64,000 nt of DNA from an uncultured Acidobacteriota bacterium (GTDB taxonomy: Bacteria > Acidobacteriota > Vicinamibacteria > Vicinamibacterales > UBA2999). Below, in pieces: positions 879 through 48,653 of the stretch (positions are counted from its first letter, which is position 1; each line of letters opens with the position of its first letter). Location: assembly GCA_963841905.1 (NCBI GenBank), contig CAWJEM010000024.1, positions 384,017 to 448,016 on the forward strand. Direction: 5' to 3'. The translations under genes were made by a program, and so were the position numbers. The notes under the pieces are model-generated. The model saw only the letters and a list, made by a program, of their open reading frames with translations. It made no database searches and was not told the DNA's origin.

Positions 879-913
879 CCGGTAGCCGGTGGCCGGTAGC
901 CGGCAGCCGTGCT
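879..913. repeat. Five tandem 7-nt units (CCGGTAG-type)
   Basis: CCGGTAG CCGGTGG CCGGTAG CCGGCAG CCGTGCT fills the gap between convergent stops (873-875 plus strand, 916-918 minus strand). Confidence 0.8.
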
Positions 914-915
914 CG

Positions 916-1962
916 CTAAGCGTGGCTTCCGCCTTCAGGCGGAAGATCCCTGATCATGGTGAGAAGACGGCCCGTGGTGACGAGGATGATCGGGCCGATC
1001 ACGAGCCCGATGAAGCCGAAGGCAGCGACGCCACCGAGTAAGCCAAAAAAGATCACAAACCCGCTCACCGACGTCCTGCCGCTCAGCAGCAACGGACGGA
1101 GAATGTTGTCGGCCATGCTGATTGCGAGCACGCCGACGAGCAGCATGCCCACCCCGCGTCCGATCTCGCCCGACAGCAGCAGCCACAGGCAGGCCGGCGC
1201 CCACACGAGCGCAGCGCCTACGACCGGGATGAGCGAGCTGAATGCAATCACGACGCCCCAGACCACCGGTGGGTTGATGCCCAGCACCCAGAACGCTATG
1301 CCGCCAATCGTGCCCTGGGCGACAGCGACGAGCAGGCCGGCACCGACACTGGCAATCACGAGATCCCGTGTGTCGCGCATCAATCGCTCACATTCCTCGG
1401 CCGGAAGAGGCAACACACTACACACCTGGCGACTCAACCTGTCGCCATCGCGGAGCATGAAGAAGAGCGCGAAGAACATCGCGACCAGAAGCCCCAGCGT
1501 CGCGAAGATGTCAGCGACGATGGCGCTCGCGCGCGGGACCATGAAGGCAAGCACGCGTTGGACGCCCTCGGCGACGAGCTGGGTGGGATCATCCGGCAAC
1601 GCGATCGGGCTCTGGGCCCGGGCCACTTCCCAGATCCGCTCGATCTGTCGAGGTGCGGTCAGCGAAGTCTGCTGCAGATAGTTGGTGACCTCCGGCGCCT
1701 CTTGCAGGAGCGCTGATACGAGCAGGACAGCCGGCGCGACGATCAAGAGGCCGGCCATCATGGTGACAACGATCGCGGCGCGGCTGGGTCCGATTCTCGA
1801 CGCGAGCCCCTCCTGAAATCCGTGAAAGACAATCGCCAGGATCACGGCCCATCCCAGGGGCTGAAGGAACGGGCCAAGAATGCGCAGCGAGAGGTAGCCC
1901 GCGAGCAGCACGAGCAAGTAGAAGAACGGGCGCTGCAACGCCTCTTTAGTGGTGTCAGTCAT
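916..1962 (-). CDS. AI-2E family transporter (PerM/UPF0118-like)
   Basis: 348-aa polytopic membrane ORF. The N-terminus ...PFFYLLVLLAGYLSLRILGPFLQPLGWAVILAIVF... and Gly-rich C-terminal helices are typical of the family. Confidence 0.8.
   Translation of the reverse strand: MTDTTKEALQRPFFYLLVLLAGYLSLRILGPFLQPLGWAVILAIVFHGFQEGLASRIGPSRAAIVVTMMAGLLIVAPAVLLVSALLQEAPEVTNYLQQTSLTAPRQIERIWEVARAQSPIALPDDPTQLVAEGVQRVLAFMVPRASAIVADIFATLGLLVAMFFALFFMLRDGDRLSRQVCSVLPLPAEECERLMRDTRDLVIASVGAGLLVAVAQGTIGGIAFWVLGINPPVVWGVVIAFSSLIPVVGAALVWAPACLWLLLSGEIGRGVGMLLVGVLAISMADNILRPLLLSGRTSVSGFVIFFGLLGGVAAFGFIGLVIGPIILVTTGRLLTMIRDLPPEGGSHA
922..948. repeat. REP-like palindromic element, copy 1
   Basis: GTGGCTTCCGCC-TTCA-GGCGGAAGATC, with an 8-bp stem CTTCCGCC/GGCGGAAG. 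Near-identical copies lie at 19826-19852 (inverted) and 48491-48516. Here it encodes the last codons of the transporter. Confidence 0.7.
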
Positions 1963-1984
1963 AAGCCGGTCCTGCTCGCGTCCC

Positions 1985-2890
1985 TTAAGGCGTCAGGTCC
2001 GGCCGATAGTCCCCGATGAACGACATGATTGCTGACGCTTCTACCATGTCGCGGGCGCGGAATCGAACCGAGTGCGAGTCGGTACGCTCGAAAATCGGCA
2101 GATAGGCGAGCACTTCGGACGGCAGGTAATTCTTGAAGCTGACGTCGACCGTGACCGGCGTCTGCACTTTGTGCGGCTTGAAGTCTCCGAGGCGGGCAAA
2201 TGCTGCACCAACACGCTGGCGAATCAACGCGTAGGATGCCTGGGGCGTGATCGTGTTCGCCGAATGAAAGCCGAGGCTGCGCTTCGTTTCAGCCGCCTCC
2301 ATCCCACCCACAAGCTTCCCCACCTCCGCAATCGCCGCGTCATCGCCCGACATCATCACAATCGGCACACCGAAGTGGCCGGCAATCGCGGCGTTCCACG
2401 ATCCCTCCGTGACATTCGTGCCGTTCAGAGCGACGCGTGTCAAATTCGCACTCGAAAAGGTGTGAGCGCGCACGCCGGTGACGTTGTTGGTGCCCGCGTG
2501 GTACCCGATGAAAATCGCGGCGGTGACCGAGGCGTCGATGCCCGCGACCATTCCAAGGCGGCGCGGCCACGAGCGAATCACGCGCACGTCAGGTGGAAAC
2601 TGGTCGATCAACAGGTTCTCGCCGTTGCCATGCGCGTCGGCAACGACGATCTCGGTGGCGCCGGCCTCTTTAGCGGCTTCGATGGCGGCGAGGGCCTCGC
2701 GCGTCATGAACTCGCGAAAGCGCCCGTACTCGAAGCCCGCCGGCGAAAGCTGATCGCCCGTCACGGCTCCTGCAACGCCTTCCATGTCGACAGAGATGTG
2801 GACTTTCAGCTGACGAGGTTGCGTGTTTGTTGGCTGGTTGGCGGACAAGGACAATGCGGCAACCACGACGATGGCGATCACGCGAAGCAC
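1985..2890 (-). CDS. Peptidase family M55 (DppA-type D-aminopeptidase)
   Basis: 301 aa with a signal peptide, followed by the ...HISVDMEGVAG... and ...VADAHGNG... motifs of M55. Confidence 0.75.
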   Translation of the reverse strand: MLRVIAIVVVAALSLSANQPTNTQPRQLKVHISVDMEGVAGAVTGDQLSPAGFEYGRFREFMTREALAAIEAAKEAGATEIVVADAHGNGENLLIDQFPPDVRVIRSWPRRLGMVAGIDASVTAAIFIGYHAGTNNVTGVRAHTFSSANLTRVALNGTNVTEGSWNAAIAGHFGVPIVMMSGDDAAIAEVGKLVGGMEAAETKRSLGFHSANTITPQASYALIRQRVGAAFARLGDFKPHKVQTPVTVDVSFKNYLPSEVLAYLPIFERTDSHSVRFRARDMVEASAIMSFIGDYRPDLTP

Positions 2891-2921
2891 GTTGGCTCCC
2901 TCCTGAAAAACTCACTCGTTT

Positions 2922-4985
2922 TCATCGTCCGGTCGTCTGCGACGCCTGCGGCTGCAGGTACTTGTTGAACCAGTTCACATATCGCTGCAGCCGATCGCGC
3001 TCGTAGCTTGGAATCGTCAGGCTGTGGAACTGTCCGGGATAAATGACCAGCTCGGTATCGATGCCAAGGCTCTTGAGCGCCTGATACATCTGCTCGCCGC
3101 CTGTGATCGGGACGTTGAAGTCTTTCTCGCCGCCGAGAAACAACGTCGGCGTCTTGATTCGATCGGCGTGAAGGAACGGATACGACACCTTCAGGTACGC
3201 CTCGGGTGCTTTCCACGGCAGCCCGATTTCGTGTTCCCATTGGATGATGTACTGGTCGAGGCCGTACAGCCCGAGCTGCATGGAGCTGCCAGCGCCGCTC
3301 ACCGCGGCCTTGAAACGCTGATCGGTCGCAATCGTGTAGTTGGTGGAAATCCCGCCGTAGCTCCACCCGCCAATTCCCAACCGATTCGGATCAGCGATGC
3401 CCTGTCGAACGGCTTCGTCAACCGCGCCAAGCAGATCCGTTACCTCGAGGTTGCCCCAGTCGGCGTAAATGGCTTTCTGATACGCATTTCCACGCCCGGC
3501 GCTGCCTCGGTAATTGATCGCCAACACGACGTACCCCTGCGCCGCCAACAGCTCGCGATCGAAGCTGAACGCGTGCTCGTCCTGCGCATTCGGTCCACCG
3601 TGAATGATGAGCAGCGTTGGATATCGCTGTCCTGGTTTGAATCCGGCCGGCTTGACGATCAGGCCGTGCACCTCGGTGCCGTCCTTGCTCTTCGACGTGA
3701 AGTCCTCGGTCGTCGCCAACTGCAACTCGCCGACGACCAGGTCGTTGTGTTTGGTGAGCTTCCGAAGCGCCCCGTTCTCCAGCGCGTGAATCTCTGCCGG
3801 CTCGGCAGGCGTTGTCGTCAGCACAGCAAAGTGTCCGTCCTTGCCAGGGCTGAGCGCGCGAACTGACCGTCGTCCGCTGCTGAGGGCCGTGACGGCTTTG
3901 GCCGAAGCCCCGACGACCGCTACGGAAGCGACCTGTTGCGTGCGGTCGTCCTGAAGGAGGAACGACAGGGTATTGCCGTCGGCAGACCAGTGAAGGTTCG
4001 ACACCGCTCGATCGAAAGCGGGCAAGAGCAGCGCCGGGACAGACACCGGCGACGTGGCCGCAGCCGGCACCGTCGCGATCTTGCTCATTTCGTAAGCGCC
4101 AAACCGATCGATATCGCCGACGAGAATGGCGATGCGCTGGCCGTCGGGACTCCACGCTGGACGGCCGGCCTCGGCTTCTGGCGTGCTCGTCAGCCGGCGC
4201 GGCACAGCCCCTTCGCGAGCCTCAATGACCCAGAGATCTTCGTTCTGCGTGCGATCGGGATCTGCGTGCGCGCGCTTGCTGCGAAAGGCGATCTGCTTGC
4301 CGTCCGGCGACCACGCCGGACTCTCATCGTCTACCTGACCACTGGTCAGAACCGATGCGGCCTTGCTCGATAGATCGAAGACCGCGATGTGATCGTAGGT
4401 TCGCTTGAGATAGCCGTCGCGATCCTGCTTGAAGGCATAGCGGTCGACCACAATCGGCGGCGCGGTCTTCCGTTTCCAGCCGTCCTTCTTTTCGGGCTCG
4501 TCATCCGGATCCTCGTCGCTTTTGACGAGGGCCAGCCGCATCGAATCGGGCGCCCAGACGACGTCCGACACGCCGCCTTTGATGTCGCTGATCTTCTGCG
4601 CTTCGCCGCCACGGCGATCGAGCAACCATATCTGCGAGCCCTTCTTTTTCTCGTCCTCCGTGCCTCGGGATGAAACAAACGCGAGATACTTGCCGTCCGG
4701 ACTCCAACGCGGCGATGACTCGTTGTCGGTCGAGAAGGTCAATCGGCGCTGCTCAGTGCCATCCCACTTCACCATCCAGACGTCAGTGTTGCGCTTATCA
4801 GCTTCAGCATCGATGGTGGTGACGGTGTAGGCCACCCAGGCGCCCTCGGGGGAACGCTGCGGATCGGCCACAGTCAGGAGTCGCGAGTGATCGTCAACCG
4901 TGATCGCTCTGCGAACTTGCGTTATGCCGCCGACCGGCAGAACGACAACGGTGAAAAGCGCGAGGAGTCCCGAGATGGTGCGCAT
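2922..4985 (-). CDS. S9 family serine peptidase (prolyl oligopeptidase/acylaminoacyl peptidase-like)
   Basis: 687 aa with a signal peptide and repeated SPDG/WSPDG propeller blades. The C-terminal alpha/beta-hydrolase domain carries the GGWSYGG nucleophile elbow. Confidence 0.85.
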   Translation of the reverse strand: MRTISGLLALFTVVVLPVGGITQVRRAITVDDHSRLLTVADPQRSPEGAWVAYTVTTIDAEADKRNTDVWMVKWDGTEQRRLTFSTDNESSPRWSPDGKYLAFVSSRGTEDEKKKGSQIWLLDRRGGEAQKISDIKGGVSDVVWAPDSMRLALVKSDEDPDDEPEKKDGWKRKTAPPIVVDRYAFKQDRDGYLKRTYDHIAVFDLSSKAASVLTSGQVDDESPAWSPDGKQIAFRSKRAHADPDRTQNEDLWVIEAREGAVPRRLTSTPEAEAGRPAWSPDGQRIAILVGDIDRFGAYEMSKIATVPAAATSPVSVPALLLPAFDRAVSNLHWSADGNTLSFLLQDDRTQQVASVAVVGASAKAVTALSSGRRSVRALSPGKDGHFAVLTTTPAEPAEIHALENGALRKLTKHNDLVVGELQLATTEDFTSKSKDGTEVHGLIVKPAGFKPGQRYPTLLIIHGGPNAQDEHAFSFDRELLAAQGYVVLAINYRGSAGRGNAYQKAIYADWGNLEVTDLLGAVDEAVRQGIADPNRLGIGGWSYGGISTNYTIATDQRFKAAVSGAGSSMQLGLYGLDQYIIQWEHEIGLPWKAPEAYLKVSYPFLHADRIKTPTLFLGGEKDFNVPITGGEQMYQALKSLGIDTELVIYPGQFHSLTIPSYERDRLQRYVNWFNKYLQPQASQTTGR

Positions 4986-7129
4986 ACGGAACTATACACA
5001 CAGGGCACCCCGCAGGACCCGACGGGGGATCTCGCCAGGCGAGGGTTGCCGCGAGGCGACCGTGAGCAGTCCTGATCAGTGAGGGCCCGGGCTTTGGCCC
5101 GGGCTTTCTTGGTTAACAGCGCCCCGACATAACACGCAGCAATGACGAACAGCAGCGGGCGAAATCCGGAGACCAAGGATAGATACTCGGCCACGCCACC
5201 AGCCATCGCGCCAAGCAGATTGGCCCCGAAATCCAACGGGACCGATTTCGAGCGCCTGAACGCGGAGCCGAAGAGCAGCCCGGCGCACAGAATCGGACTG
5301 AACATCAGGGCCGCATAGAACACCGACTCCGCGGCACGGCTTTCGAACGCCACGCGTCCGACGGGCACGAGGTAGTTGACGGCCAGCAGAGCGAGCAACA
5401 CCGCGCCGACGCGCCACGGACGTGTGACATCCCATCGCGAAATCACGAAGTTGGCGGCGAGCGCCATCACCAGTACCGACGCGATCGCCAACGACGCCAC
5501 CACCCATGTCGATCCCCACAGCAGCGCAAACTGGATGATCGACCTGGTTTCAAGCAGCATGAAACCGGCGCCTAGCAGAAAGAAGTGCCACGACCATTGG
5601 CCGCGATGGCCGCGCAGCGCGGCTCCCACGGCCACGATCGACACGACAACGATCAAGGCGAGGGCCGCAAGGTAATGTGCGGGCACATGCCGGTCACGCA
5701 GATACAGGAACGGCCAATCGTCGGTGGCGGGTTCGATGCTCGCGTCACGTCGATGCGCGTGCGGCGGACTCGGCCGGACCGATCGACCGAACTGCGTGAC
5801 GCGATCGGGAATCGGAACATCGGCGGGAAGGGATGCGACCCGCGGCCCGGCCAACATGACGCCTAGATAGCCATTGGCTTCGTGCACGTGCACCCGCGGC
5901 TCGGCGCCAAACGCGACCGCCGCTGTATTGGCCAGGCGATCCACCAGCCAGCGTTCGCGGAAGTAGTTGTAGATCACGAGCACGCCGTTGGGCCTGAGGC
6001 GATCGCGCACGGCGCGGAACGACTCCTCGGTGAACATATAGCTTTCGAGGCGAACACCGGAGAAGCTGGATTGCAGCGTCAATGAGTCAATCAGCGCAAA
6101 TACCACCATGTCGTACTGCTTGTCCGTCGTCCGCAGAAAGTGTCGCGCGTCGTCGTTGACGAGATGAACTCGCGGATCGCTGTAGGGACGCTCGGGATGT
6201 CGTTCTCGACCGAGCTGGAGGATGACCGGGTCGATATCGACGGCATCCACACGCTTGGCCCCGTGTTTCAGCGCGGCAGCAACGTCAGTGCCGGATCCTG
6301 CGCCCAACACGAGCACATCGTCGAAGGTGTCGCCAAAGGCGACGTAGGGCCACTCGTAGAAGTACTCCTTGTGGGCGAGCGGCGCCATCGACTGGTGAAA
6401 CGTGTTGTTGACGTCGATGATGGTCTCTTCGCCGCTCTGACGGACGCCGATCTTGTAATACGGTGACCAGAGGGCCTCGCGTCCCAAGATGTGAATCAAC
6501 ACCAGCGAGACGGCGAGCAACACGCAGCCCCCAATCGGCCCGATCCAGGATTGGCGTCTGGCGCCGTCCTGCACGAGAAATGGCAACGACGCGGCGAAGG
6601 CGATGGCGAACCAGGCCGTCGGCGGCAGCTCCAGCCATGACATCAGTGCAAAGACGATGATCCCCGCGAGACTGCCGGCTAGGTTGAGGGAGTAGGCCCG
6701 CAACGCCTCGAGCCGCTCCATCTCGCGCGCCATCTGCTGCGCGAGGGCGGCAAACAGCGCGGCCACAACCGCAAACAGCAACGGCAACAGCAGCCAGCTC
6801 TCGACCAGGACGATGTCGTCGCCGGTGCCGCTCGAGAAATAGATGCTGCCGGAGGTGCGGACGTTCACCTCGAGACGGAAGAAATAGACGGCCCCGACAA
6901 CCAGCGCCTGAATCAGCGGAAACCAGGAGAACAGGCGACGGCGTGAGGACGCGAGGAGGCAGCCCACTCCGATTCCGAGAAAACACGCGAGCAGGATGAA
7001 GTTGGAAAAGTATGACAGCAGGCGGATGTACGCGGGCAGCCAGCGGAGAAGAGCGATCTCGAGAAACAGAACCAGGAAGGAGGAAAGAAAGATGGAGAAG
7101 CCCGGGCTCTTCGCCCGGCCATCAAACAT
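4922..7129 (-). CDS. Spermidine/spermine synthase-like methyltransferase fused to polytopic membrane domains
   Basis: 735 aa. Membrane regions flank LVLGAGSGTDV...VDAVDIDP...VNDDARHFL. The 3' tail crosses the 5085-5110 hairpin and overlaps the next gene by 64 nt. Confidence 0.75.
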   Translation of the reverse strand: MFDGRAKSPGFSIFLSSFLVLFLEIALLRWLPAYIRLLSYFSNFILLACFLGIGVGCLLASSRRRLFSWFPLIQALVVGAVYFFRLEVNVRTSGSIYFSSGTGDDIVLVESWLLLPLLFAVVAALFAALAQQMAREMERLEALRAYSLNLAGSLAGIIVFALMSWLELPPTAWFAIAFAASLPFLVQDGARRQSWIGPIGGCVLLAVSLVLIHILGREALWSPYYKIGVRQSGEETIIDVNNTFHQSMAPLAHKEYFYEWPYVAFGDTFDDVLVLGAGSGTDVAAALKHGAKRVDAVDIDPVILQLGRERHPERPYSDPRVHLVNDDARHFLRTTDKQYDMVVFALIDSLTLQSSFSGVRLESYMFTEESFRAVRDRLRPNGVLVIYNYFRERWLVDRLANTAAVAFGAEPRVHVHEANGYLGVMLAGPRVASLPADVPIPDRVTQFGRSVRPSPPHAHRRDASIEPATDDWPFLYLRDRHVPAHYLAALALIVVVSIVAVGAALRGHRGQWSWHFFLLGAGFMLLETRSIIQFALLWGSTWVVASLAIASVLVMALAANFVISRWDVTRPWRVGAVLLALLAVNYLVPVGRVAFESRAAESVFYAALMFSPILCAGLLFGSAFRRSKSVPLDFGANLLGAMAGGVAEYLSLVSGFRPLLFVIAACYVGALLTKKARAKARALTDQDCSRSPRGNPRLARSPVGSCGVPCVYSSVCAPSRDSSRFSPLSFCRSAA
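5085..5110 (+). terminator. Terminator-shaped hairpin with no plus-strand gene upstream
   Basis: GCCCGGGC-TTTG-GCCCGGGC followed by TTTCTT. It lies inside the 3' tail of the minus-strand ORF 4922..7129. Confidence 0.3.
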
Positions 7130-9468: not shown

Positions 9469-9538
9469 GCCTGCCCGCGAGCGATTCTACTTTAGCTCGC
9501 CCAGGTCGTTCGATCGACCCGAGGACAGGAAGTCGACT

Positions 9539-9766
9539 TCAAAGCACCGAAGTTTCTCGACGCGGATTGAATTCCAGGCGCATCGCGGGATGGCTGGTCG
9601 GATGCATGTAGCACCGAAAGACCGCGAAGAACCTGTGTTCTATAAGGCTTTGCTTTGCGTCAGTCTCCGTGTCGGTGCGCCAGTGTTCGAGGTTCAGATT
9701 GCCATCGGGACACTCGGGACACTTGCGGTTTCGGAGTCGCGGAACGGGCCAGGTGTTCTGCGCCAT
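9539..9766 (-). CDS. Hypothetical small Cys/His protein (weak call)
   Basis: 75-aa ORF in a 354-bp divergent intergenic region containing ...RKCPECPDG...FRCYMHPTSHP.... Third-position GC is lower than in neighbouring genes and I recognise no family. Confidence 0.25.
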   Translation of the reverse strand: MAQNTWPVPRLRNRKCPECPDGNLNLEHWRTDTETDAKQSLIEHRFFAVFRCYMHPTSHPAMRLEFNPRRETSVL

Positions 9767-9822
9767 GAGGCCGAGTGTAACTCACCTAACGTCCTTGCGG
9801 TTGGAGGCTGAGCTTCGCTAGC

Positions 9823-11343: not shown

Positions 11344-11385
11344 AAAAACCTGCGGCGTCAAGTGGGGGCGACGGAGATCCACGCA

Positions 11386-11441
11386 GCCACGAAGGTCACG
11401 AAGCCCTCAAGAACAAGTCATGTTCTTCGTGTCTTCGTGGC
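11386..11441. repeat. Inverted tandem-repeat hairpin (CACGAAG units) between convergent genes
   Basis: GCCACGAAG GTCACGAAG ... AAGAACA-AGTCA-TGTTCTT ... CTTCGTGT CTTCGTGGC. It lies between stops at 11343 and 11464. Confidence 0.8.
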
Positions 11442-11463
11442 GTCGTCGTGAGTTCTTAATCGT

Positions 11464-12171
11464 CTAGAGCGGCCGGATCTTGATGTTTCGGTACCAGACC
11501 GGGTCGCCGTGATCCTGGAGCGCGATGTGGCCGCGCTTGCTGCGGCCATACATCGGGATCTTGCCGAACTTGCTCGCCTTCACGCGCGCTTCCCAGTCGG
11601 GACTCCACAGCTCGTAATCGACGATCTTCACGCCGTTCATCCAGTGCTCGACGTGAGAGCCCTTGACGAGCAGCCGCACGGTATTCCATTCCCCGACGGG
11701 CTTGGTGACATCGCGAACCGGTGGGTGCACGGCGTAATTCGATCCCGCCGACGTGATCGGGTCCTTGCCGTCCCGATGCACGGCGTTATCGAGGACCTGC
11801 ACCTCGGGTCCAGACCACCAGGCTGCGTCGCCCTCCTTGACGACGTGGAAGAAGATGCCGCTGTTGCCACCTTTGCCGAGCTTCCATTCGAGACTGAGCT
11901 CGAAGTCGCCGAATTCCTCGACAGTCAGGATGTCGCCACCCTCGGCTTCACGGGTGAGGACGCCGTCGATCGCTTTCCAACCGGTGCCCGGCGTCGGCGT
12001 CTTGAACCCCTGCCAGCCCGCCAGTGACTTGCCGTCGAAGAGCAGCTTCCAGCCCGCCTTGCGTTCCTCCGCTGTGAGACCGCCGGGAGTCTGCGCGTCC
12101 GTCATCACAAATGGCCAACCCACCAACAAGGCGACAAAGGCGACGGACAAGGCACGGAAGCACGGCAGCAC
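11464..12171 (-). CDS. DUF1080 (3-keto-disaccharide hydrolase, PF06439) domain protein
   Basis: ...GWKLLFDGKSLAGWQGF... and ...GHIALQDHGDPVWYRNIKIRPL* are family hallmarks. In the ORF track it is fused to the isomerase (11464..13011). Proposed own start is GTG 12169-12171, giving signal-like VLPCFRALSVAFVALLVGW. ATG 12115 is an alternative. Confidence 0.75.
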   Translation of the reverse strand: MLPCFRALSVAFVALLVGWPFVMTDAQTPGGLTAEERKAGWKLLFDGKSLAGWQGFKTPTPGTGWKAIDGVLTREAEGGDILTVEEFGDFELSLEWKLGKGGNSGIFFHVVKEGDAAWWSGPEVQVLDNAVHRDGKDPITSAGSNYAVHPPVRDVTKPVGEWNTVRLLVKGSHVEHWMNGVKIVDYELWSPDWEARVKASKFGKIPMYGRSKRGHIALQDHGDPVWYRNIKIRPL

Positions 12172-12232
12172 AGGAGCACGGAATAAACCATATAAAACCT
12201 TCCGTGTTTCCGTGGTTCCGTGTTTCCGTGCC
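12151..12232. repeat. Inverted tandem-repeat hairpin (CACGGAAG units)
   Basis: GGCACGGAAG CACGGCAG CACAGGAG CACGGAAT - loop AAACCATATAAAA - CCTTCCGTG TTTCCGTG GTTCCGTG TTTCCGTGCC. Confidence 0.85.
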
Positions 12233-12257
12233 TTTTCCTTGATCTCCTCCGCCAACG

Positions 12258-15615: not shown

Positions 15616-15693
15616 GGTCCACGGTCCACGGTAGCCACGAAGGACGAAGCAATTCCGTTGTGGGGATCTTCGTGCCTTCGTGCCTTCGTGGCC
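15616..15693. repeat. Inverted tandem-repeat hairpin (GGTCCAC / CACGAAG units)
   Basis: GGTCCAC GGTCCAC GGTAGCCACGAAG GACGAAG - loop - CTTCGTGC CTTCGTGC CTTCGTGGCC. It fills the gap between stops at 15598 and 15695. Confidence 0.85.
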
Positions 15694-16996: not shown

Positions 16997-17020
16997 GGCG
17001 GACAATTGGTACTCAACGGG

Positions 17021-17260
17021 GGTTCTCGACGACGGTTCTCCACAGGGGTTCTTCACGAGGGTTCTCGACGAAGGTTCTCCACGACGGTTCTCGACCGGGC
17101 TGTCGCACCTTTCGTCAAGAACCGTCGTCGAACCATCGTCAAGAACCATCGTCAAGAACCATCGTCGAGAACCGTCGGGAAGAATCGTCGGGGAGAACCA
17201 TCGCTGAACAATCGTCAAGAACCTAAGTAAAGAACCCTCGTGCAGAACCGTAATGAACAC
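17021..17260. repeat. Array of 13-nt units: 6 forward (GGTTCTCGACGAN), then about 12 reverse-complement (NTCGTCAAGAACC)
   Basis: Forward units occupy 17021-17098, a spacer 17099-17110, and reverse units 17111-17260 (decaying toward the end). It lies between divergent starts at 16996 and 17368. Confidence 0.9.
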
Positions 17261-23276: not shown

Positions 23277-23363
23277 TGGTCACTGACCACTGACCGCTGG
23301 TCACCAGACGTCAGGCTTTTGCTACCTGCAGACTGGCCGCTGACCACCGGCCACCGGTCACTG
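23277..23363. repeat. Short-unit repeat cluster (GGTCAC/TGACC units)
   Basis: TGGTCACTGACCACTGACCGCTGGTCACC ... TGGCCGCTGACCACCGGCCACCGGTCACTG. The units are self-complementary. Confidence 0.7.
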
Positions 23364-30629: not shown

Positions 30630-30630
30630 A

Positions 30631-30732
30631 GGGCGTAGGGCATAGGGCGTAGGGCATAGACGGGCTCAGGGCCCTCAGTCCCTTTACCTCCTATGCCCTA
30701 TGCCCTATGCCCTGTGCCCTACGCCCTATGCG
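30631..30732. repeat. Inverted tandem-repeat hairpin (TAGGGCR 7-nt units)
   Basis: GGGCGTA GGGCATA GGGCGTA GGGCATA ... AGGGCCCT centre ... CCTATGC CCTATGC CCTATGC CCTGTGC CCTACGC CCTATGC. It fills the gap between stops at 30629 and 30735 exactly. Confidence 0.9.
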
Positions 30733-33941: not shown

Positions 33942-34099
<158 letters not shown>

Positions 34100-34120: not shown

Positions 34121-35035
34121 ATGCGGTGCTTCTATTCCGACACGTTCGTTTTACCGCTGCCCGAGGGGCATCGTTTTCCGATGGCCAAGTATTCCGGCCT
34201 TCGGGAACGGTTGCTTCGAGATGGCATCGTGAGCGCCGCCGAGCTGCACGAGGCGCCTCAGGCGTCTTGGAAGGATCTGGGACTCGTGCATGCCGCTGGA
34301 TACCTCCAGGCGGTAGAGCAAGGGACGCTGCCGCGCGAAGCGCAACGGCGTATCGGGTTTCCGTGGTCGTCGCAGATGGTCGAGCGCGCCCGCCGATCGG
34401 TCGGAGCAACGATTGCGGCTGCACACGCCGCCGTTGACGAAGGGTGCGCTGCCAATCTCGCAGGAGGCACTCACCACGCCTTCGCCGACCGCGGCGAGGG
34501 CTACTGCGTCTTCAATGATGTGGCGGTTGCGAGTCGTGTTCTGCAGCGTGACACCGGCGTCCGGCGGATCGCGATCATCGACTGCGATGTGCATCAGGGC
34601 AACGGAACGGCCGCGATCTTCATGGGCGACGCTGACGTGTTCACTTTCTCGATGCATGGAGCGAGAAACTACCCGTTTCGCAAGGAAACGAGCGACCTCG
34701 ACGTCGAGTTGGAGGATGGCACCGGTGATGAGCCGTATCTCGCGCATCTTGCACATTCTGTGGACATGATCCTTCGAACGCATCGTCCGGAGATCGTGTT
34801 CTATCTGGCGGGTGCGGATCCGTTCGAAGGCGACCGGCTCGGCCGGCTCGAGCTGACCATTGATGGCTTGCAACGCCGTGACGAGCTGGTGATGGACCGC
34901 TGTTGCGGCACGGGCCTTCCAGTCGTGGTTACCATGAGCGGTGGCTACGCGACCAATGTGGACGACATCGTCACGATTCACGCGAACACGATACGTGTGG
35001 CATCGTCGATCACGATGAGCCCCCGCAGCACCTGA
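34121..35035 (+). CDS. Histone deacetylase family protein (acetylpolyamine/acetoin-utilisation type)
   Basis: 304 aa with ...GGTHHAFADRGEGYCVFNDVAVA...DCDVHQGNGTA.... Confidence 0.85.
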   Translation: MRCFYSDTFVLPLPEGHRFPMAKYSGLRERLLRDGIVSAAELHEAPQASWKDLGLVHAAGYLQAVEQGTLPREAQRRIGFPWSSQMVERARRSVGATIAAAHAAVDEGCAANLAGGTHHAFADRGEGYCVFNDVAVASRVLQRDTGVRRIAIIDCDVHQGNGTAAIFMGDADVFTFSMHGARNYPFRKETSDLDVELEDGTGDEPYLAHLAHSVDMILRTHRPEIVFYLAGADPFEGDRLGRLELTIDGLQRRDELVMDRCCGTGLPVVVTMSGGYATNVDDIVTIHANTIRVASSITMSPRST

Positions 35036-35109
35036 GGCACCCAATGCACCTTGAGCACCGAGGCACCAGCACCCGAGGCACTTACGGCACTAAGGCACCC
35101 TAGGCACCC
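35026..35109. repeat. Direct tandem array of about 10 GGCACC-containing 7-9 nt units
   Basis: CAGCACC TGAGGCACC CAATGCACC TTGAGCACC GAGGCACC AGCACCC GAGGCAC TTACGGCAC TAAGGCACC CTAGGCACC. There is no inverted partner. It spans the stop at 35033-35035 to 9 nt before ATG 35118. Confidence 0.85.
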
Positions 35110-35117
35110 TATTTCTT

Positions 35118-37796: not shown

Positions 37797-37805
37797 GTCG
37801 ACTCG

Positions 37806-38324: not shown

Positions 38325-38330
38325 ACACGA

Positions 38331-38447
38331 AAGTTACAAGTTACAAGTTACAAGTTCCAAGTGGAGTTGGAAGTTCCGGGTATAGCTGCGGCGCCCTTGT
38401 GGCGCCGCAGTTTGTAACTTGCAACTTGTAACTTGTAACTTCTCAAC
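38331..38447. repeat. Nested hairpin: AAGTTAC heptamer arms around a 10-bp GC stem
   Basis: AAGTTAC x3, AAGTTCC ... CTGCGGCGCC-CTTGT-GGCGCCGCAG ... TGTAACT TGCAACT TGTAACT TGTAACT. It lies between stops at 38324 and 38443. Confidence 0.9.
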
Positions 38448-39876: not shown

Positions 39877-39884
39877 ACAGTCGT

Positions 39885-39989
39885 CAGTGACCAGTGACCA
39901 GTGCCGGTGCCGGTGGCCGGTCGCCAGTTGCCAGTCGCCGGCCCGAAGATAGAACGTCTCAGAACCGGGAACCGACCACTGGCAACCGG
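39885..39989. repeat. Short-unit tandem array with partial inverted partner
   Basis: CAGTGAC CAGTGAC CAGTGCC GGTGCC GGTGGCC GGTCGCC AGTTGCC AGTCGCC ... CCGACCACTGGCAACCGG. It lies between the start at 39876 and the stop at 39997 of same-strand genes. Confidence 0.8.
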
Positions 39990-39996
39990 AGACCTG

Positions 39997-43164: not shown

Positions 43165-43245
43165 CAAACGCACCCCGACGAGACGGGGCGGGCGGGCTCG
43201 GCGAGCATCGATGTCGAGTATACGGGAGGGGTCGAAGCTCCCCAG

Positions 43246-43311
43246 GAATACAATTACTGCATGCCCCGAGCGGCGACGACGAGCGACGTCTTCAACGCCG
43301 TCGCAGAAGCC
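43246..43311 (+). repeat. 66-bp direct repeat, copy A (arsR -10 box plus first 17 codons)
   Basis: 63 of 66 bases are identical to 47065-47130. It opens a 35-codon dead-end ORF, MPRAATTSDVFNAVAEA|DVARRND... Confidence 0.9.
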
Positions 43312-43413
43312 GATGTTGCCCGTAGGAATGACGCACGGCTGTCACGGTGGTCGCGCCGACCTTGACCGTCCGAGGTCGCGTCAGGCTCGACTCGGCGTTG
43401 GCGTTTCGGAATC

Positions 43414-43524
43414 TCAGTAGACGAGAGTAGGGCCCCGGGAAACGCCAAACATCCAGAACGCCAACACAATTGCCACTACCACGGCGGCTCGGAGAATGAT
43501 CTTCTCGCGTGTTGAAATTCGCAT
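43414..43524 (-). CDS. Candidate 36-aa single-pass membrane peptide
   Basis: MRISTREKIILRAAVVVAIVLAFWMFGVSRGPTLVY*. It begins 29 nt after the kinase stop. The RBS is weak. Confidence 0.25.
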   Translation of the reverse strand: MRISTREKIILRAAVVVAIVLAFWMFGVSRGPTLVY

Positions 43525-43552
43525 ACCTGCCCCAGAACGGAGCGGATCGCCA

Positions 43553-46194
43553 CTAGTTTCCGCGCCTCCAGTTCAGAATCAGTGTAATCGGGGAGGATGC
43601 CAGATCATCCGCCGCGACATTGATCAGGAAACGACCGTCGGCCGCGACATCGTATTGGGGGTTGAAAGGATTGACCGCCGCGCTTTCCACAAAGCGCGGG
43701 GCGAAGAGCGCGACTGGCGGACTGGTCTGAAACACTGATCCGGAAGCGCTGACCTGAACGGCCATCAGCTTGCCGTCTGCGGCAACGTAGAACAGCTCGC
43801 GGCCATCGCGACTCCAGCGGCCATGCACGCCCCCGCCCGTCGACACGTGCCACACCCGTTCACCGGCAGGAAACCCCCGCACCGCGATCTCGAAAGGACC
43901 CGATTCATTCGTTTGGTACAAGAACCATCGACCATCGGGAGACAAACGTGCACTGCTTTCATCAGCGGACGTGCCAACGAGCTTACGCGTTTCCGAGGCT
44001 GGACCGAGCCGATGCACCCACACGTCGCGGCTGGCGTTTTGCGGCGTGCTGTAAAAGAGCAGCCAACGACCGTCGCGCGAAATGTCGCTCGGCGAAATCT
44101 GCGAAACGCCGAGGGCCGCCGCGCCGAGGACCAAGCTTTCATGTCCCTCCGCGTCGAGGCGCGCCATGTAGATGTCGAATGTGCTGCCGCGACTGGATCG
44201 GAAGGCGATTGCATTTTCGTCGGGCATCCACACTGGGAACACTTCCTGCGCCGAATTCATCGTCAGTCGCGTGACGGCGCCGCCGGCACGATTGACGATC
44301 CAAATATCAATGTTGCCCCCGGGGCGGCGTGTGAGGGCGACCCGTTGGCCGCTCGGCGCGAGGACCGGGCCCGAGGGAAATTCGGCGTCAGAAGCCGCGA
44401 AAGCCCCTTGATCCTCACCGTTGCGGCCGAACCAGCGCAGTTGCGCGCCGGTGACGCGGCCGGGCCGATACGCCACTGGTCCCGCTCGTGAAATCGAGAA
44501 CGCGCTCCGGCCCACCGTCGAAGGTACCGGACTCGCCACTGCCTCCGGGACTCCGGTGACCATATTCCTCGCCTCGTCAAACGGCTGGACATACAACGTT
44601 CCTTCGCGAACATACATGACTTCGTTCGGCTCGCGGAACTCGGCGGTGCCGTCGCTTCGCAACAGGCGTGTGCGATCTGGGCTGTCGATCGCCGCCAGAT
44701 AGACTCCTCGCTTGTCGGGATCGCCGATCTCAAGAACAAAGAGAAACCGCCGTCCGTCAGGGTGCCAGGTGGGTGAGAGGTGAGCGCCTTCACCTGGTGC
44801 GTGCGACGTCACGGTCCGAACGGCTGACCCGGTGGCCGAGACGAGATGGATGGGTCCGGAGGCGTTCTGCGTGAACAAGATGTCGCCGTTGGTGCTCCAC
44901 GCCCCACTTCGGCCAGCCGGCGCGTCGGCGAGCGTGACCGCCGCACCGCCCGCCAGATCGATGCGCTTCAGTTTGCCGTAGGCAAAGAACCCGATGGAGC
45001 GTGCGTCGGGTGACCAGAACGGGTTGACCGCACCTTCCGTGTTCGGCAGTGGCATCGCGGCGGCGTTGTCGAAAGCCCGCAGCCACAACTGCGAGGGACC
45101 CGTCGCTCCACGGGCGGCGAACGTGATTCTCCGGCCGTCGGGAGACAGCGCAAACGAATACGCATCTGCAGCCGCCGGCGTGGCGATATCGAGGCGCAAC
45201 TCGCCGATGCGAGGTGTCGGCGATAGCCAGAGCGCGGCCGCGGCCGACGCGATTGCCACGACGGAGGCACCCGCGGACAGTTTCCAATTGATGCGCCGTC
45301 GACCGGGCTCGACGATGGCTTCACCATCGACGTTGCCGGCGGCCGCTTCTTCGATCTCGATGCGAACGGCGGTCGCCGAGTCGAGTCGCTGCGATCGTTC
45401 GCGTACGAGGCATCGTCGCAGCAGCCTGCGAAGTGACGAAGGCGTGGAAGCGGGCAACAGCGTCCAGTCCGGCGAGGTGTGGAGAACGGCCGCCATCGTT
45501 TCCGTAGCCGTCGCTCCGCCGAACGCTCGATGTCCGCTTAACATCTCGAAGAGGACGCACCCCAAGCTCCAGATATCGCTCCGCCGATCGACACTTAGAC
45601 CCCTCGCCTGCTCGGGAGACATGACGATGCGGTGCCAAACACGACTCCAGGTCCGGTCATCTGCATCGGGATCGTGCCGGAATCGGAACTGCCGTTCGCA
45701 AGGCCTGCCGGTACAACGGTCCGGGCCAGCCCGAAGTCGAGCACCTTGGCGACCCCGTCAGATCGCACCTTGATGTTTGCGGGCTTCAAGTCCCGATGGA
45801 CGATGCCGATCTCGTGCGCAGCTTCAAGCGCCGCCGCGATCTGGCGCCCGATCTCGAGCGCCTGATCAAGCGGCAGGCGACCCTGCCGAATCCGGGCGGC
45901 GAGGTCTGCGCCCTCGACGAACTCCATCACCAATGCGCGGCTTCCATCCTCGCTCAGCGCGACGCCGTAGATCTGCGCGACATGTGGATGGTTGATCGAT
46001 GCCAGCATCATGGCTTCGCGCTCGAACCGCGCGGCGCGCTCGGCATCACGGACAAACTGGTCGGGCAGAACCTTGATGGCGACGACGCGTCGGAGATCCG
46101 GATCGAGGGCCTTGTAGACTTCGCCCATCCCGCCGGCACCGAGCGAGCACTGAATCTCGTATGATCCGACGCGTGCGCCCGGGGCGAGTTTCAT
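43553..46194 (-). pseudogene. Ser/Thr protein kinase fused to a TolB-like beta-propeller, frame broken once
   Basis: Pieces are 45595..46194 ([28 protein letters not shown]) and 43553..45622 (SPEQARG..., repeated SPDG blades). The motif GTAS-YMSPEQ lacks one base at about 45623. Confidence 0.85.
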
Positions 46195-46312
46195 GGATAC
46201 CGTCGAGCTCGGCTGCGGATCACGTTTCTGTCACATGGGGAAGGGGCTGACCAGAGATCGAGAACGAACGTTATGCAAACCGCGAGACGGGCCTAATGTG
46301 TCCTATCGTGCG

Positions 46313-46480
46313 TCACCTGGTCGAGCGGAGAGATACCGAGTCTGGCCGTCGCCGCCAAGAAAAGCGCCATTCACCGTTTCCCCTGCCACGCCCAGCGGGC
46401 GTTTGCGCTGTGGGCAGCGCCAGGTAGAGCATGCCAAGAGCGAGAACCCCCAAGGACGACTGCAGGTGCCTGCCGTTCAT
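46313..46480 (-). CDS. Candidate 55-aa ORF with signal-like N-terminus (weak)
   Basis: GGAGGAG precedes ATG 46478-46480. Sequence: MNGRHLQSSLGVLALGMLYLALPTAQTPAGRG.... It could be the remnant of a longer gene. Confidence 0.2.
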   Translation of the reverse strand: MNGRHLQSSLGVLALGMLYLALPTAQTPAGRGRGNGEWRFSWRRRPDSVSLRSTR

Positions 46481-47046
46481 CCTCGTCTCCTCCGCGACGA
46501 CACGAAGCGATCACACGACATGCGGAGCCTAGGTCGGTTCGGGTCTCGTGGTCAAGGCCGACCGGACGGCCCTCGGCCGGACGCCATCGGCGACAGGGCA
46601 GCCGTAGGCAGCCATCGCCGCGATCGCCAGGAGGGCTGCGACCGCGCGACCCGCGTACCACACCGAAAAATCGAGCGTGACAGGGAAGTACGTGAGGACC
46701 CGGAACGCCAGCACCATGACCGCAAAGGCCAGAAAGCCAACACGCGGCGCTCATCCCGATACGTGCGGGTTCGGGCTCAGACCGGCCCGTTCTACAGACG
46801 ATCGACATCGCCGGCGTCGCCGCTTGCGCCATCTAGCCGAGCGGCTCCCAAAACCAATGACGTAGTCGAACACCACGCGGAGCGTCTCGCGCTTTTGTGT
46901 GGTGGGGCGAGGCTCGCGCGACCGCGGGGCCTCGCACCTACCCGAGGAGGAATGCCCAATGACTGACGGCGGGTTTCCAAGCTCAGGCCATCACGTGCCG
47001 ATTGTCCATGCTTCCCGCCGGGCCGCTGACCCGCGGCGTCGAGGTG

Positions 47047-47074
47047 TTGACATATTCCGTAATGGGAATACAAT
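47047..47074 (+). promoter_or_regulatory. Sigma-70-type promoter of arsR, probably giving a leaderless mRNA
   Basis: TTGACA (47047-52), a 16-nt spacer, then TACAAT (47069-74). The ATG at 47081 is only 6 nt downstream of the -10 box. Confidence 0.5.
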
Positions 47075-47130
47075 TACCACATGCCTCGAGCGGCGACGAC
47101 GAGCGACGTCTTCAACGCCGTCGCAGAAGC
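47065..47130 (+). repeat. 66-bp direct repeat, copy B
   Basis: Matches 43246-43311 with 3 mismatches and covers the functional arsR 5' end. Confidence 0.9.
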
Positions 47131-47416
47131 GCGACGACGGGACATCCTCGTCTACCTGGCGACGCGCGAGCGTCCAGTCGGCGACATCGTGGCCGCGCTC
47201 GACCTGCATCAGCCGTCCGTATCCAAACACCTCCGTGTGCTGCGAAACGTCGGCCTGGTGAACGTTCGACGAGAAGGTCGTCAGGCGTTTTATCGCACGA
47301 ACGTCCATGCCATTCGACCGCTCCATGAATGGGCCGGGATGTTCGAGCGCCATTGGAAGCACCAGCTCGCACGGATCAAGGAGCAAGCCGAAAGGGAAAC
47401 TCATGACTCTGACTGA
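47081..47416 (+). CDS. ArsR/SmtB family transcriptional regulator
   Basis: 111 aa with the wHTH ...RRRDILVYLATRERPVGDIVAALDLHQPSVSKHLRVLRNVGLVNVRREGRQAFY.... Confidence 0.85.
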   Translation: MPRAATTSDVFNAVAEARRRDILVYLATRERPVGDIVAALDLHQPSVSKHLRVLRNVGLVNVRREGRQAFYRTNVHAIRPLHEWAGMFERHWKHQLARIKEQAERETHDSD

Positions 47417-47852
47417 TTCAGCACTCGACAATCTGACGCTCAACATCACGCAGGAAATCCAGGTGCGCGCCCCGCTGGACGCCACGTTCGCAGCCGTCCT
47501 CGAACAGATGGGGCCGGCAAACGAAACACCAGATGGAAAGCCCCTTCCACTGGTCCTCGAGGCTGTTCCCGGTGGTCGATGGTTTCGCGATCTTGGTGAT
47601 GACGACGGCCACTTCTGGGGTCACGTTCAGGCGATCAAACGGCCGACACTGCTCGAGATCACGGGGCCGCTTTTCATCTCCGGCCCGGTGATGTCGAATA
47701 TTCAGTACCGCCTGCGAGAAGTCGACGGTGGTACGCTGATTGTCTTCCGGCACTCTGCACTCGGGTTCGTGCCAGACGACTATCGGGAAGGTCTTTCCAA
47801 GGGCTGGACGCCCCTGCTCGATCGCATTCGGAAGCAAGCTGAACGAACTTAG
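47403..47852 (+). CDS. SRPBCC (Aha1/START-like) domain protein
   Basis: ATG 47403 overlaps the arsR end by 14 nt. Contains ...ITQEIQVRAPLDATFAAVLEQMG...WFRDLGDDDGHFWGHVQAIKRPTLLEI.... Confidence 0.8.
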   Translation: MTLTDSALDNLTLNITQEIQVRAPLDATFAAVLEQMGPANETPDGKPLPLVLEAVPGGRWFRDLGDDDGHFWGHVQAIKRPTLLEITGPLFISGPVMSNIQYRLREVDGGTLIVFRHSALGFVPDDYREGLSKGWTPLLDRIRKQAERT

Positions 47853-47927
47853 GTTTCAAGGTTCCAGGGTTCCAGGGGTTCAAGGTTCTGAGAACTTTGG
47901 AACCTTGGAACGTTGGAACCCTGGAAC
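47852..47927. repeat. Inverted tandem-repeat hairpin (AGGTTCC 8-nt units)
   Basis: GGTTTCAA GGTTCCAG GGTTCCAG GGGTTCAA GGTTCTGA | GAACTTTG GAACCTTG GAACGTTG GAACCCTG GAAC. It lies between co-directional genes. Confidence 0.9.
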
Positions 47928-47947
47928 ATTTTATGAGGAGAAGTGTC

Positions 47948-48466
47948 ATGTCGATGATCCAAGCGTTGCAGCAGGAACTTGATGTCGAGATGGAAACGAC
48001 CCGGCGTGTCCTCGAACGTGTCCCGGGCGACCGTCTGAGCTGGAAACCGCACGACAAGTCGATGTCGCTCGGACAGTTGGCGCTCCACATTGCCACGCTC
48101 CCCGGCGCCATTGCCGAGATATCACAGCACTCGCCGTTCACCATGCCCCAGATCACGCAGCCGAGCGCATCGACGGCCGCGGAATTGATACCAGCCTTGG
48201 AAGAGAGCGTCGCCAACGCAAAGCGTCATCTCGGAACGCTCGACGATGCGGCGTTGACGAAGATGTGGCGTCTCGTGGACGGAGACAGGGAGCTTTTCGC
48301 GGTGCCGATTGGTGGGCTATTTCGCTCGGTCATGCTCAACCACTGGTATCACCATCGCGGGCAGCTCTCGGTGTATTTGCGGCAGTTGAACGTGCCAGTG
48401 CCGTCGATCTACGGGCCGAGCGCGGATGAAAATCCGTTTGCAGCGGCAAAAGCAGCGACTGTGTAG
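47948..48466 (+). CDS. DinB-family (DinB_2) protein
   Basis: ATG 47948 follows AGGAGA. Contains ...RLSWKPHDKSMSLGQLALHIA...MLNHWYHHRGQLSVYLRQ.... Confidence 0.8.
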   Translation: MSMIQALQQELDVEMETTRRVLERVPGDRLSWKPHDKSMSLGQLALHIATLPGAIAEISQHSPFTMPQITQPSASTAAELIPALEESVANAKRHLGTLDDAALTKMWRLVDGDRELFAVPIGGLFRSVMLNHWYHHRGQLSVYLRQLNVPVPSIYGPSADENPFAAAKAATV

Positions 48467-48490
48467 TTGCGATCAAATCACTCGCCCCTA

Positions 48491-48574
48491 TGGCTTCCGG
48501 TTTTAGCCGGAAGATCAGGCTTCAGCCGAAAGATCTGTTGTCCGCCGCAGCTTTAGCCGGAAGGCGGAAGCCAC
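48491..48574. repeat. Cluster of REP-like elements (one full copy, two partial)
   Basis: TGGCTTCCGG-TTTTAG-CCGGAAGATC (48491-48516), AGGCTTCAGCCGAAAGATC, and GCTTTAGCCGGAAGGCGGAAGCCAC. Confidence 0.65.
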
Positions 48575-48615
48575 AGGGGCATGTTACTCATGCCGCAATG
48601 CCACCACGTTCACTT

Positions 48616-48653
48616 GGTCACTAATCGCTGATCACTGATCACTGATCACTGAG
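48616..48653. repeat. Tandem CTGATCA heptamers
   Basis: GGTCACTAATCG CTGATCA CTGATCA CTGATCA CTGAG. It overlaps the stop codon (48646-48648) of the kinase gene. Confidence 0.8.

Follow-up and report, generated by a model that had tools for sequence, protein, structure and literature searches.

The intergenic spacers of a 64,000-nucleotide (nt) stretch of contig CAWJEM010000024.1, from the uncultured Acidobacteriota assembly GCA_963841905.1 (positions 384,017 to 448,016; this whole stretch is called the window below), are repeatedly filled by tandem arrays of very short units, most of them accompanied by copies of the reverse-complement unit. The question raised by this locus is whether each spacer made its own array or whether the arrays belong to families that occur at many loci. 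An earlier note on the same DNA held that the unit differs at every site, that no sequence is shared and that this is therefore not a classical repetitive extragenic palindrome (REP) or miniature inverted-repeat transposable element (MITE) family. The arrays exceed chance, are intergenic and form hairpins; their families are dispersed, and orthologous sites come to hold different elements. The unit repeated in tandem to make up an arm measures 7-9 nt (13 nt in one case). The elements are probably, though with much room for doubt, several families of small non-coding, hairpin-forming dispersed repeats of REP/MITE-like character, which are remodeled by slippage and often replaced.

Arrays and hairpins in the window

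The window, with a guanine-cytosine (GC) content of 63%, encodes ordinary housekeeping and transport functions. Vicinamibacterales and other Acidobacteriota metagenome-assembled genomes, the best genome matches, have proteins 76-78% identical to its deacetylase. Tandem Repeats Finder (TRF; period 6-9, at least three copies, score of at least 40) reports 14 arrays, compared with a mean of 0.02 in 50 dinucleotide-preserving shuffles (no array in 49 and one array in the remaining one). TRF and direct reading confirmed the arrays at all thirteen sites that the earlier note had listed; the list was real throughout and incomplete, since the largest element, 17008-17249, was missing from it. Every array falls between the best-scoring flanking open reading frames (ORFs), in convergent (six or seven), co-directional (four) and divergent (two) settings, as had been described, and the fit between convergent stop codons claimed at 30629/30735, 38324/38443, 11343/11464 and 15598/15695 agrees with the ORF table. 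The elements are the following.

879..913: CCGGTAG x4.4, direct, filling the 40-nt convergent spacer between the Lhr C-terminus and an AI-2E transporter gene; weak self-pairing, z about -1.3.
11386..11441: CACGAAG-family hairpin, GCCACGAAG-GT-CACGAAG, 21-nt loop, CTTCGTG-T-CTTCGTGGC, between convergent GFO/IDH/MocA oxidoreductase and 3-keto-disaccharide hydrolase genes; z -4.3.
12151..12232: 8-nt unit CACGGAAG x4, 16-nt AT-rich loop, CTTCCGTG x4, between the co-directional stop of a TIM-barrel gene (about 12263) and the start of a 3-keto-disaccharide hydrolase gene; z -9.2.
15616..15634: GGTCCAC x2.4, a direct remnant adjoining the stop of a nucleoside symporter gene.
15638..15693: second CACGAAG-family hairpin, GCCACGAAGGACGAAG, loop, CTTCGTG-C x2, CTTCGTGGC, ending 1 nt short of the M20 peptidase stop; z -3 to -4.
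17008..17249: largest element, 13-nt unit GGTTCTCNACGAN x about 7, loop, inverted unit x about 11, with stems of about 100 bp, between the divergent starts of M20 peptidase and MacB/FtsX genes; z -7.7/-8.3.
23277..23363: GGTCACT/TGACCAC units and an inverted partner in the spacer after a VWA gene; z -2.1/-5.4, the minus strand being much the stronger.
30630..30732: TAGGGCR x4.3 (a strict 14-nt dimer), 30-nt loop, YGCCCTA x6, filling the 105-nt spacer between the convergent stops of GGT and a hypothetical gene; z -10.8.
33942..34099: GGTCCAC/GGCCTAC x6.4, 13-nt loop, CCGTGGA/CCGTAGG x14, between divergent proline-racemase-like and deacetylase starts; z -10.4.
35026..35111: irregular direct array of GGCACC-containing units, no inverted arm, in the deacetylase/OCD spacer; z +0.4 on the plus strand.
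38331..38441: AAGTTAC x4.6, 49-nt loop, GTAACTT x4.3, between convergent stops; z -8/-10.6. The loop contains its own perfect GC hairpin at about 38386-38410.
39885..39989: CAGTGAC/GGTGCC/CAGTTGC units with a shorter inverted arm, in the co-directional M48/MscS spacer.
47851..47927: AGGTTCCA x4.8, 3-nt loop, TGGAACCT x4.5, in the co-directional AHSA1/DinB spacer; z -8.7/-9.8.
48610..48652: TCACTGA x5, direct, no inverted arm; z about -1.2.

The reverse-complement unit occurs in at least two copies within 150 nt beside 13 of 15 window arrays. Hairpin strength, taken as the RNAfold z-score against shuffles, was predicted site by site. It is strong at eight sites (z -3.1 to -10.8 at 11380, 12145, 15610, 17000, 30630, 33938, 38325 and 47848) and strong on one strand only at 23270 and 39877; the direct arrays at 879-913, 35026-35109 and 48616-48653 form no significant hairpin. 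The shared design proposed earlier, in which tandem units, a loop and reverse-complement units fill a spacer, thus stands, except that these three sites are direct only. The CACGAAG arrays had been read with a 7-nt period; the period is in fact 8 (N+CACGAAG). In several arrays two unit variants, which differ by a transition, alternate as an exact 14- or 16-nt dimer, and in the right arm at 34001-34099 identical units lie in blocks of 4, 4 and 3. Canonical G-quadruplex motifs occur on both strands in the (GGGCRTA)n arms (30630-30659, and 30690-30732 read on the reverse strand), a parallel to the Xanthomonas GGGAATC pairs.

The array at 12151..12232 appears intragenic because of the frameshifted upstream TIM-barrel gene, whose real stop, by comparison with a relative (L208), is a TAG at about 12263. 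This AP_endonuc_2 gene (12263-13137, minus strand) bears two frameshifts, one near 12780 and a 1-nt insertion near 12275, which create an apparent 515-aa ORF that reads through the array and on into the gene beyond. Either the gene is a pseudogene or the sequence contains an error; L210 has a split copy too.

The arrays were also compared with other classes of element. They are not a CRISPR array, since their units of 7-13 nt abut directly, whereas CRISPR repeats of 24-48 nt alternate with unique spacers of similar length. No Rfam family matched anywhere in the window at gathering thresholds, and at E<=1 the long hairpin at 12150 matched only chance microRNA-precursor models. No tRNA or transfer-messenger RNA gene was found in the 64 kb.

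Shared families and turnover among relatives

Orthologous regions were retrieved through two flanking proteins, MscS and the M20 peptidase. MscS led to the loci L081 (98% amino acid identity; 93% nucleotide identity over 5.9 kb), L082 (88%) and L083/L084 (81%), the last two being multi-megabase contigs syntenic with the window over 15 kb, and the M20 peptidase led to L208/L209 (93%), L210 (88%) and L211 (87%). The claim that the unit differs at every site fails within the window itself: CACGAAG hairpins of the form GCCACGAAG...CTTCGTGGC lie at both 11386 and 15638, with an 8-mer relative, CACGGAAG, at 12151, and GGTCCAC recurs at 15616 and 33942. Nor are the units locus-specific, as relatives carry the window units AAGTTAC, CACGAAG and GGYCCAC at non-orthologous spacers. 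The GGYCCAC family is found twice in the window, in L210 (at the place orthologous to 15616..15634), in L083 at a non-orthologous place and as a remnant in L208. At the GGT/hypothetical spacer, L083 has AAGTTAC units and a CACGAAG hairpin, compared with TAGGGCR in the window.

Further hairpin families beside CACGAAG are built on the units CAGTT, GTTCGGR and GATTTGGT. The CAGTT family, with the inner boundary CCAGTTCAAAGG...CCTTTGAACTG (CAGTT...CAAAGG), occupies three different spacers among L081, L082, L083 and L210, namely M48/MscS (L082, L083), MscS/next gene (L081) and 3-keto-disaccharide hydrolase/GFO (L210). GTTCGGR occurs twice in L210, around one small gene, and once in the metagenome locus L141; the L210 copies are GTTCGGR/GTTCTGA hairpin arrays of about 340 nt (5960-6300 and 6885-7215) on both sides of a small DUF2721 gene. 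Dispersal over loci and contigs is thus seen for CACGAAG, CAGTT and GGYCCAC, the counts within one genome covering 64 kb.

Comparison of orthologous spacers for turnover of their units, which the earlier note had suggested, shows arrays kept with changed copy number or exchanged. Six spacers can be compared with relatives at about 93% (L081, 93% nucleotide identity; L208, 93% amino acid identity); the family is retained at three and another element is present at the other three. The MscS/next spacer has AAGTTAC in the window and CAGTT in L081, the M20/NucH spacer has CACGAAG and GGTCCAC in the window and CAGTCTC in L208, and the 3-keto-disaccharide hydrolase/GFO spacer has CACGAAG in the window, a REP-like pair in L208 and CAGTT in L210. 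At the exchanged spacers, the coding flanks are nearly identical up to the last codons. Among retained elements, the 13-nt-unit array at 17008..17249 is present in L208, L209 and L210 with differing copy numbers and absent in L211; the CACGGAA array at 12151..12232 is shared with L208 and absent from L210; and AGGTTCCA units fill the orthologous L082 spacer in about 8+8 copies. The element at 39885..39989 is a derived form of the CAGTT family of L082 and L083, and its distal arm is rearranged in L081. Judging from the array-free spacers of L083, L001 and L003, which measure 0-50 nt between deacetylase and OCD and 20-110 nt between racemase and deacetylase, the window arrays at these two places appear to be insertion-like gains. 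On a finer scale, L208 and L209 have an identical M20 protein, and their CAGTCTC arrays differ by unit insertions and deletions as well as substitutions, and in L083 one arm has been homogenized to a new variant. Copy number therefore varies between relatives. In phase-variation (contingency) repeats, such variation falls at a site governing a promoter or reading frame; two of the arrays (17008..17249 and 33942..34099) sit between divergent starts, where expression might be affected.

Could the arrays be errors of assembly or sequencing? Frameshifted genes and odd low-complexity tracts elsewhere in the window might suggest as much. However, orthologous arrays lie at the same gene junctions, with sensible variation, in independent JGI, ENA and NCBI assemblies on both short and multi-megabase contigs, and an artefact is exceedingly improbable.

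At 52130-52450 a poly-purine, GGAGG-like tract is nearly C-free, and at 55560-55920 a C-rich tract is nearly G-free; the two bracket a 3.1-kb hydrolase/methyltransferase gene block and are complementary in composition only, for which gene decay, hypermutation or assembly noise could be the cause. Just before the C-rich tract, at about 55470-55545 on the plus strand, a Ser/Thr-kinase N-terminus (LGAGGMGEVYRSRDTKLKRR) dissolves into low-complexity sequence. Possible further assembly frameshifts are indicated by long overlapping minus-strand ORFs (6913-8403 versus 4922-7129 and 7746-8798), and in the 4922-8798 region a GMC oxidoreductase is matched only partly over its N-terminal domain, which also suggests a frameshift.

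A more serious alternative is that the arrays are RNA or DNA structures under selection, acting as bidirectional or U-tract-independent terminators, as mRNA-protecting 3′ stem-loops or as insulators of transcription units, with slippage as the quickest route to a longer stem. Very stable hairpins (z down to -11) indeed follow stop codons by 1-20 nt at six or seven convergent sites, and the M48/MscS spacer keeps an array while the unit changes between the window, L081, L082 and L083. Terminators, defined as a GC-rich stem with a loop of 3-8 nt and a following T/U run, were scanned for at 500-20400 and 29000-48900; none of 39 terminator-like hits coincides with an array hairpin, and the counts are near shuffle level. 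One hit at 11434-11452 clips only the outer end of the 11386 element, and the array hairpins usually have loops of 13-50 nt and no T-run. Bidirectional termination, an example given in the earlier note, is thus not borne out as a general role: no array passes the scan, and divergent starts flank two large elements. An inverted arm is missing at three sites, and the closer outgroups L001, L003 and L211 have short plain spacers. Selection on structure alone would also permit compensatory changes, but the core of CACGAAG is conserved and its spacer base N mostly mismatched. Selection for structure as the general explanation is therefore unlikely. U-tract-independent termination, protection of mRNA 3′ ends and divergent-promoter effects may occur, though none of them would account for the conservation of unit cores or for content that is exchanged so freely.

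Some spacers hold elements of another kind. A separate REP-like hairpin family, GATC-TTCCGSC-N4-GSCGGAAG-CCACGC, has three window copies, compared with 0.06 expected, at 922-947, 19824-19853 and 48492-48515 (and 48549-48575), and in L208 an inverted pair (6700-6780) sits at the spacer that holds a CACGAAG hairpin in the window. A link between these hairpins and the CACGAAG arrays was rejected, since the motif is absent from all 120 CACGAAG loci examined. In L083 (11354-12582) and L084, a Y1_Tnp gene resembling a REP-associated tyrosine transposase (RAYT) occupies the MscS/next spacer, where the window, L081 and L082 have tandem-unit hairpins; it is flanked by GTAG-type REPs (GCGGGACTTTAGTCCCGC...CTACGTACGT) and not by arrays.

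The CACGAAG family in metagenomes and the polarity of arms

Metagenome contigs were scanned for GCCACGAAG-N(10-40)-CTTCGTGNCTTCGTGGC. The CACGAAG hairpin was found in at least 120 soil metagenome contigs, with different flanks in each of the matches listed, which contradicts the earlier exclusion of a REP/MITE-like family. Locus GC among the listed matches ranges from 38% to 71%. One carrier, L103, is assigned to Chitinophagaceae by a kynureninase that shares 79-85% identity with named proteins of that group, and therefore the family crosses phyla. Only 3 viral contigs carry the hairpin, which speaks against a viral origin. Copies are spread over gene-orientation classes in a roughly chance distribution, for which the ORF-based method, noisy in high-GC DNA, is a rough guide. 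A text search of a paper library did not find the CACGAAG array string.

The consensus element is GC, two to three units of CACGAAG+N, a variable loop, two to three units of CTTCGTG+N, and GC. Its ends are sharp and it has no target duplication. Among the matches listed, 71% of copies are paired up to the GC cap and no further, and the loops are unrelated in sequence and length, with a median of 16 nt and 39% GC compared with 64% in the flanks. Positions upstream of the elements are weakly conserved. GATC is enriched just outside either end (n = 116; 15 left, 22 right), and both sides carry it in only 2 cases, the number expected under independence; it was consequently rejected as a target-site duplication. 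Continuation of the palindrome into unique flanks, as insertion into older hairpins or local inverted duplication would leave, is in weak excess only (8% versus 2.7% for at least 3 nt). A function of the 5′ arm as an all-frame stop was likewise discarded, as the CACGAAG arms contain no stop codons. In L127 (3658-3855) and L174 (5451-5627), a CACGAAG hairpin is nested within the loop of an outer hairpin of GCGCGAAG/CGCAAAGG units.

Purines occupy the spacer base N of the 5′ arm and pyrimidines that of the 3′ arm, and opposed N positions form 36 A.C/G.T combinations and 10 Watson-Crick A-T/G-C pairs (chi-square p about 3e-4). A similar polarity extends beyond this family. The 120 CACGAAG loci contain 44 further strict inverted pairs of other units, with a period of 7 in 24, of 8 in 15 and of 9 in 5; of 43 independent pairs, 35 have a purine-rich 5′ arm and 32 a 5′ arm with G>C. 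This polarity holds on both strands, because the inverted arrangement is its own reverse complement. Some 8-mer units are shared between contigs above chance, GATYTGGT in four loci and ATTGCAGG in two.

Such features might arise if the units were arrays of binding sites, one per 7-8 nt, for single-strand or duplex binders, with different families serving different putative binders. The CACGAAG core is kept at 38-71% GC in two phyla while loops and N vary, polarity is consistent (35 of 43 independent pairs), and the N positions avoid Watson-Crick pairing (36 versus 10). Against this, no candidate protein was found, the elements show no link to particular gene functions, and their content is swapped freely between close relatives, a turnover that regulatory sites would not withstand. 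Arrays of binding sites are accordingly quite improbable as the explanation.

The same data bear on a purely local origin, in which slippage from a local seed would build each array, intrastrand template switching (quasi-palindrome correction) would make the inverted arm and keep it complementary, and units would recur only by chance or mutational preference. Unit-level indels between near-identical strains and blockwise expansions fit such a process, as do the remnant of an older array within a newer loop in L208, the layered arms in L141, L127 and L174, the single-arm drift in L083 and the unrelated loops within families. However, the extended sequences GCCACGAAG...CTTCGTGGC and CCAGTTCAAAGG...CCTTTGAACTG recur at non-orthologous sites, the CACGAAG hairpin is in at least 120 contigs, one of them from Bacteroidota, and element ends are sharp. 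A local origin is thus unlikely as the whole explanation. The slippage that the earlier note offered as a common generating process survives in the unit indels between L208 and L209, although not as a purely local source of the arrays.

The density of strict inverted pairs differs between lineages: per 100 kb there are 7.8 in the window, 1.65 in Chloroflexota and 0.16 in Pseudomonadota (37 loci, 644 kb), and there are none in 12 other Acidobacteriota loci (185 kb). Therefore, proliferation is specific to certain lineages. In Chloroflexota, L013 and L016 have different units at one orthologous spacer.

Known systems and the origin of the elements

Several known classes of repeat resemble these elements in part. 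REPs and their hairpin-forming doublets (REPINs) are short imperfect intergenic palindromes that are mobilized by RAYT (Y1) proteins, carry a GTAG/CGTC 5′ tag and flank the cognate RAYT gene. They share with the window elements the dispersed intergenic palindromes, the variable spacer occupancy and the lack of target-site duplication, and REP-type elements in L083 and L208 sit at spacers that hold arrays in the window. The window elements differ in that their arms are tandem rather than single palindromes, the loops of copies are unrelated and no linked RAYT gene was found in the window; CACGAAG elements begin with GCCACGAAG and other families have other ends, so the GTAG/CGTC tetranucleotide is absent. 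MITEs are small, non-coding and dispersed, with terminal inverted repeats, a target-site duplication and a conserved interior. The window elements are likewise small, non-coding, intergenic and dispersed, and the CACGAAG elements have conserved terminal inverted sequences (GCCACGAAG...CTTCGTGGC). They differ in their internally tandem arms, in the absence of direct repeats flanking the CACGAAG elements and in an interior that is not conserved, the CACGAAG loops being unrelated in the matches listed.

The nearest parallels are heptamer repeats of cyanobacteria and the GGGAATC arrays that lie as convergent pairs in Xanthomonas. In cyanobacteria, short tandemly repeated repetitive (STRR) and P6b sequences are tandem 7-nt units in non-coding DNA, and the degenerate heptamers on both sides of P6b pair into a hairpin (PMC3488679); copy number and repeat class differ between strains at the same site, as that paper relates from Costa et al. 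(2002). The window elements share these tandem 7-nt non-coding units, the paired heptamer hairpin and the variation among strains. They differ in belonging to another phylum with high GC, in occurring as many families in ordinary spacers, in having periods of 8, 9 and 13 as well, and in families that spread across loci and taxa. Xanthomonas genomes contain 70-75 convergent pairs of intergenic GGGAATC heptamer arrays capable of forming stem-loops (Rehm et al., 2015; PMC4692102), and array length varies among related species while array type is kept (PMC4692102). Opposite-strand arrays lie close together in the present elements too, with the G-rich arm first, and GGGAATC itself is absent; one unit serves the whole genome in Xanthomonas, whereas many units occur here, most of them not G-quadruplex-capable.

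Long simple sequence repeats (LSSRs) of 5-11 nt, of which the heptanucleotide class is the commonest in many bacteria, are intergenic and have been ascribed to slippage (Mrazek, Guo and Shah, 2007, as summarized in PMC4679880 and PMC4692102). The window arrays agree with LSSR- and STRR-type repeats in being intergenic, above chance and made of units of 5-11 nt repeated head to tail three times or more; the inverted-arm arrangement, polarity and dispersed families are not mentioned in those two summaries. The direct TAACTGA repeats of Beggiatoaceae, Cyanobacteria and Bacteroidetes present one heptamer in distant phyla with no known transfer mechanism (MacGregor, 2015; PMC4679880), so the puzzle of a heptamer crossing phyla was already raised in 2015. 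Nearly all of these lie just upstream of start codons in direct orientation, with one inverted case in 170 (PMC4679880), in contrast to the inverted arms in all gene contexts described here; the reverse complement, TCAGTTA, is the CAGTT-type unit of L081, L083, L210, L164 and L016. Geobacter heptamer elements are a further precedent (PMC2700814). Because of these cyanobacterial, Xanthomonas, TAACTGA and Geobacter precedents, the elements are not a wholly new class, and concept searches of the literature returned no description closer than these and LSSRs.

How might such families behave as dispersed repeats? An element would occupy an intergenic spacer, often all of it. Its arms would grow, shrink and change unit through replication slippage, new variants spreading along an arm, and over somewhat longer times the content of the spacer would be swapped for a member of another family. 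Families are common to related genomes at different loci, and CACGAAG at least extends across many soil bacteria including another phylum. Spread would involve some copying process, such as single-strand or hairpin transposition without target duplication or ectopic templated repair. The elements would be mostly selfish or neutral, with any effects on transcript 3′ ends or promoter spacing secondary.

Several observations weigh against this account as dispersed repeats. The loops of family members are unrelated, even among the two or three window copies, and arms may thus be made per site and not copied whole, because recent REPIN or MITE copies would share loops. Only exact or extended unit matches count, as 7-mer matches with one mismatch allowed are near the chance rate. 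GGTCCAC, CGGTCTC and CAGTCTC form a mutational series, so that some replacement can be read as drift in place, and the loop of the newer L208 array holds a remnant of an older GGYCCAC array. A tblastn search with the L083 Y1_Tnp protein found no transposase or RAYT gene in the window, which is uninformative for 64 kb of a genome of probably about 5 Mb, and copies of one family can be counted within those 64 kb rather than per genome.

The unrelated loops, sharp ends, lack of target duplication, polarity and cross-phylum core fit no known spreading route. It is conceivable, if rather unlikely, that the arms are written site by site by a sequence-specific process present in several phyla and not copied whole. 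A candidate would be reiterative copying of a template onto 3′ ends at a break or nick and their subsequent joining, with different unit families reflecting different templates. The polarity would then resemble that of a telomere fusion, the purine- or G-rich strand running 5′ to 3′ toward the center on both strands. If true, site-by-site writing would account jointly for the conserved cores, the unrelated loops, the older sequence in a loop and this polarity.

As dispersed repeats or otherwise, a 7-nt core across distant phyla with sharp ends and unrelated loops is not accounted for by RAYT/REP mobilization, MITE transposition or plain slippage. Much of the non-coding DNA of the Vicinamibacterales-like Acidobacteriota, a poorly studied yet abundant soil group, consists of these elements, and similar ones occur in Chloroflexota and Bacteroidota. 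They likely cause breaks in short-read assemblies. They change faster than their surroundings and could serve as strain markers, and promoter spacing and transcript ends probably vary because of them.

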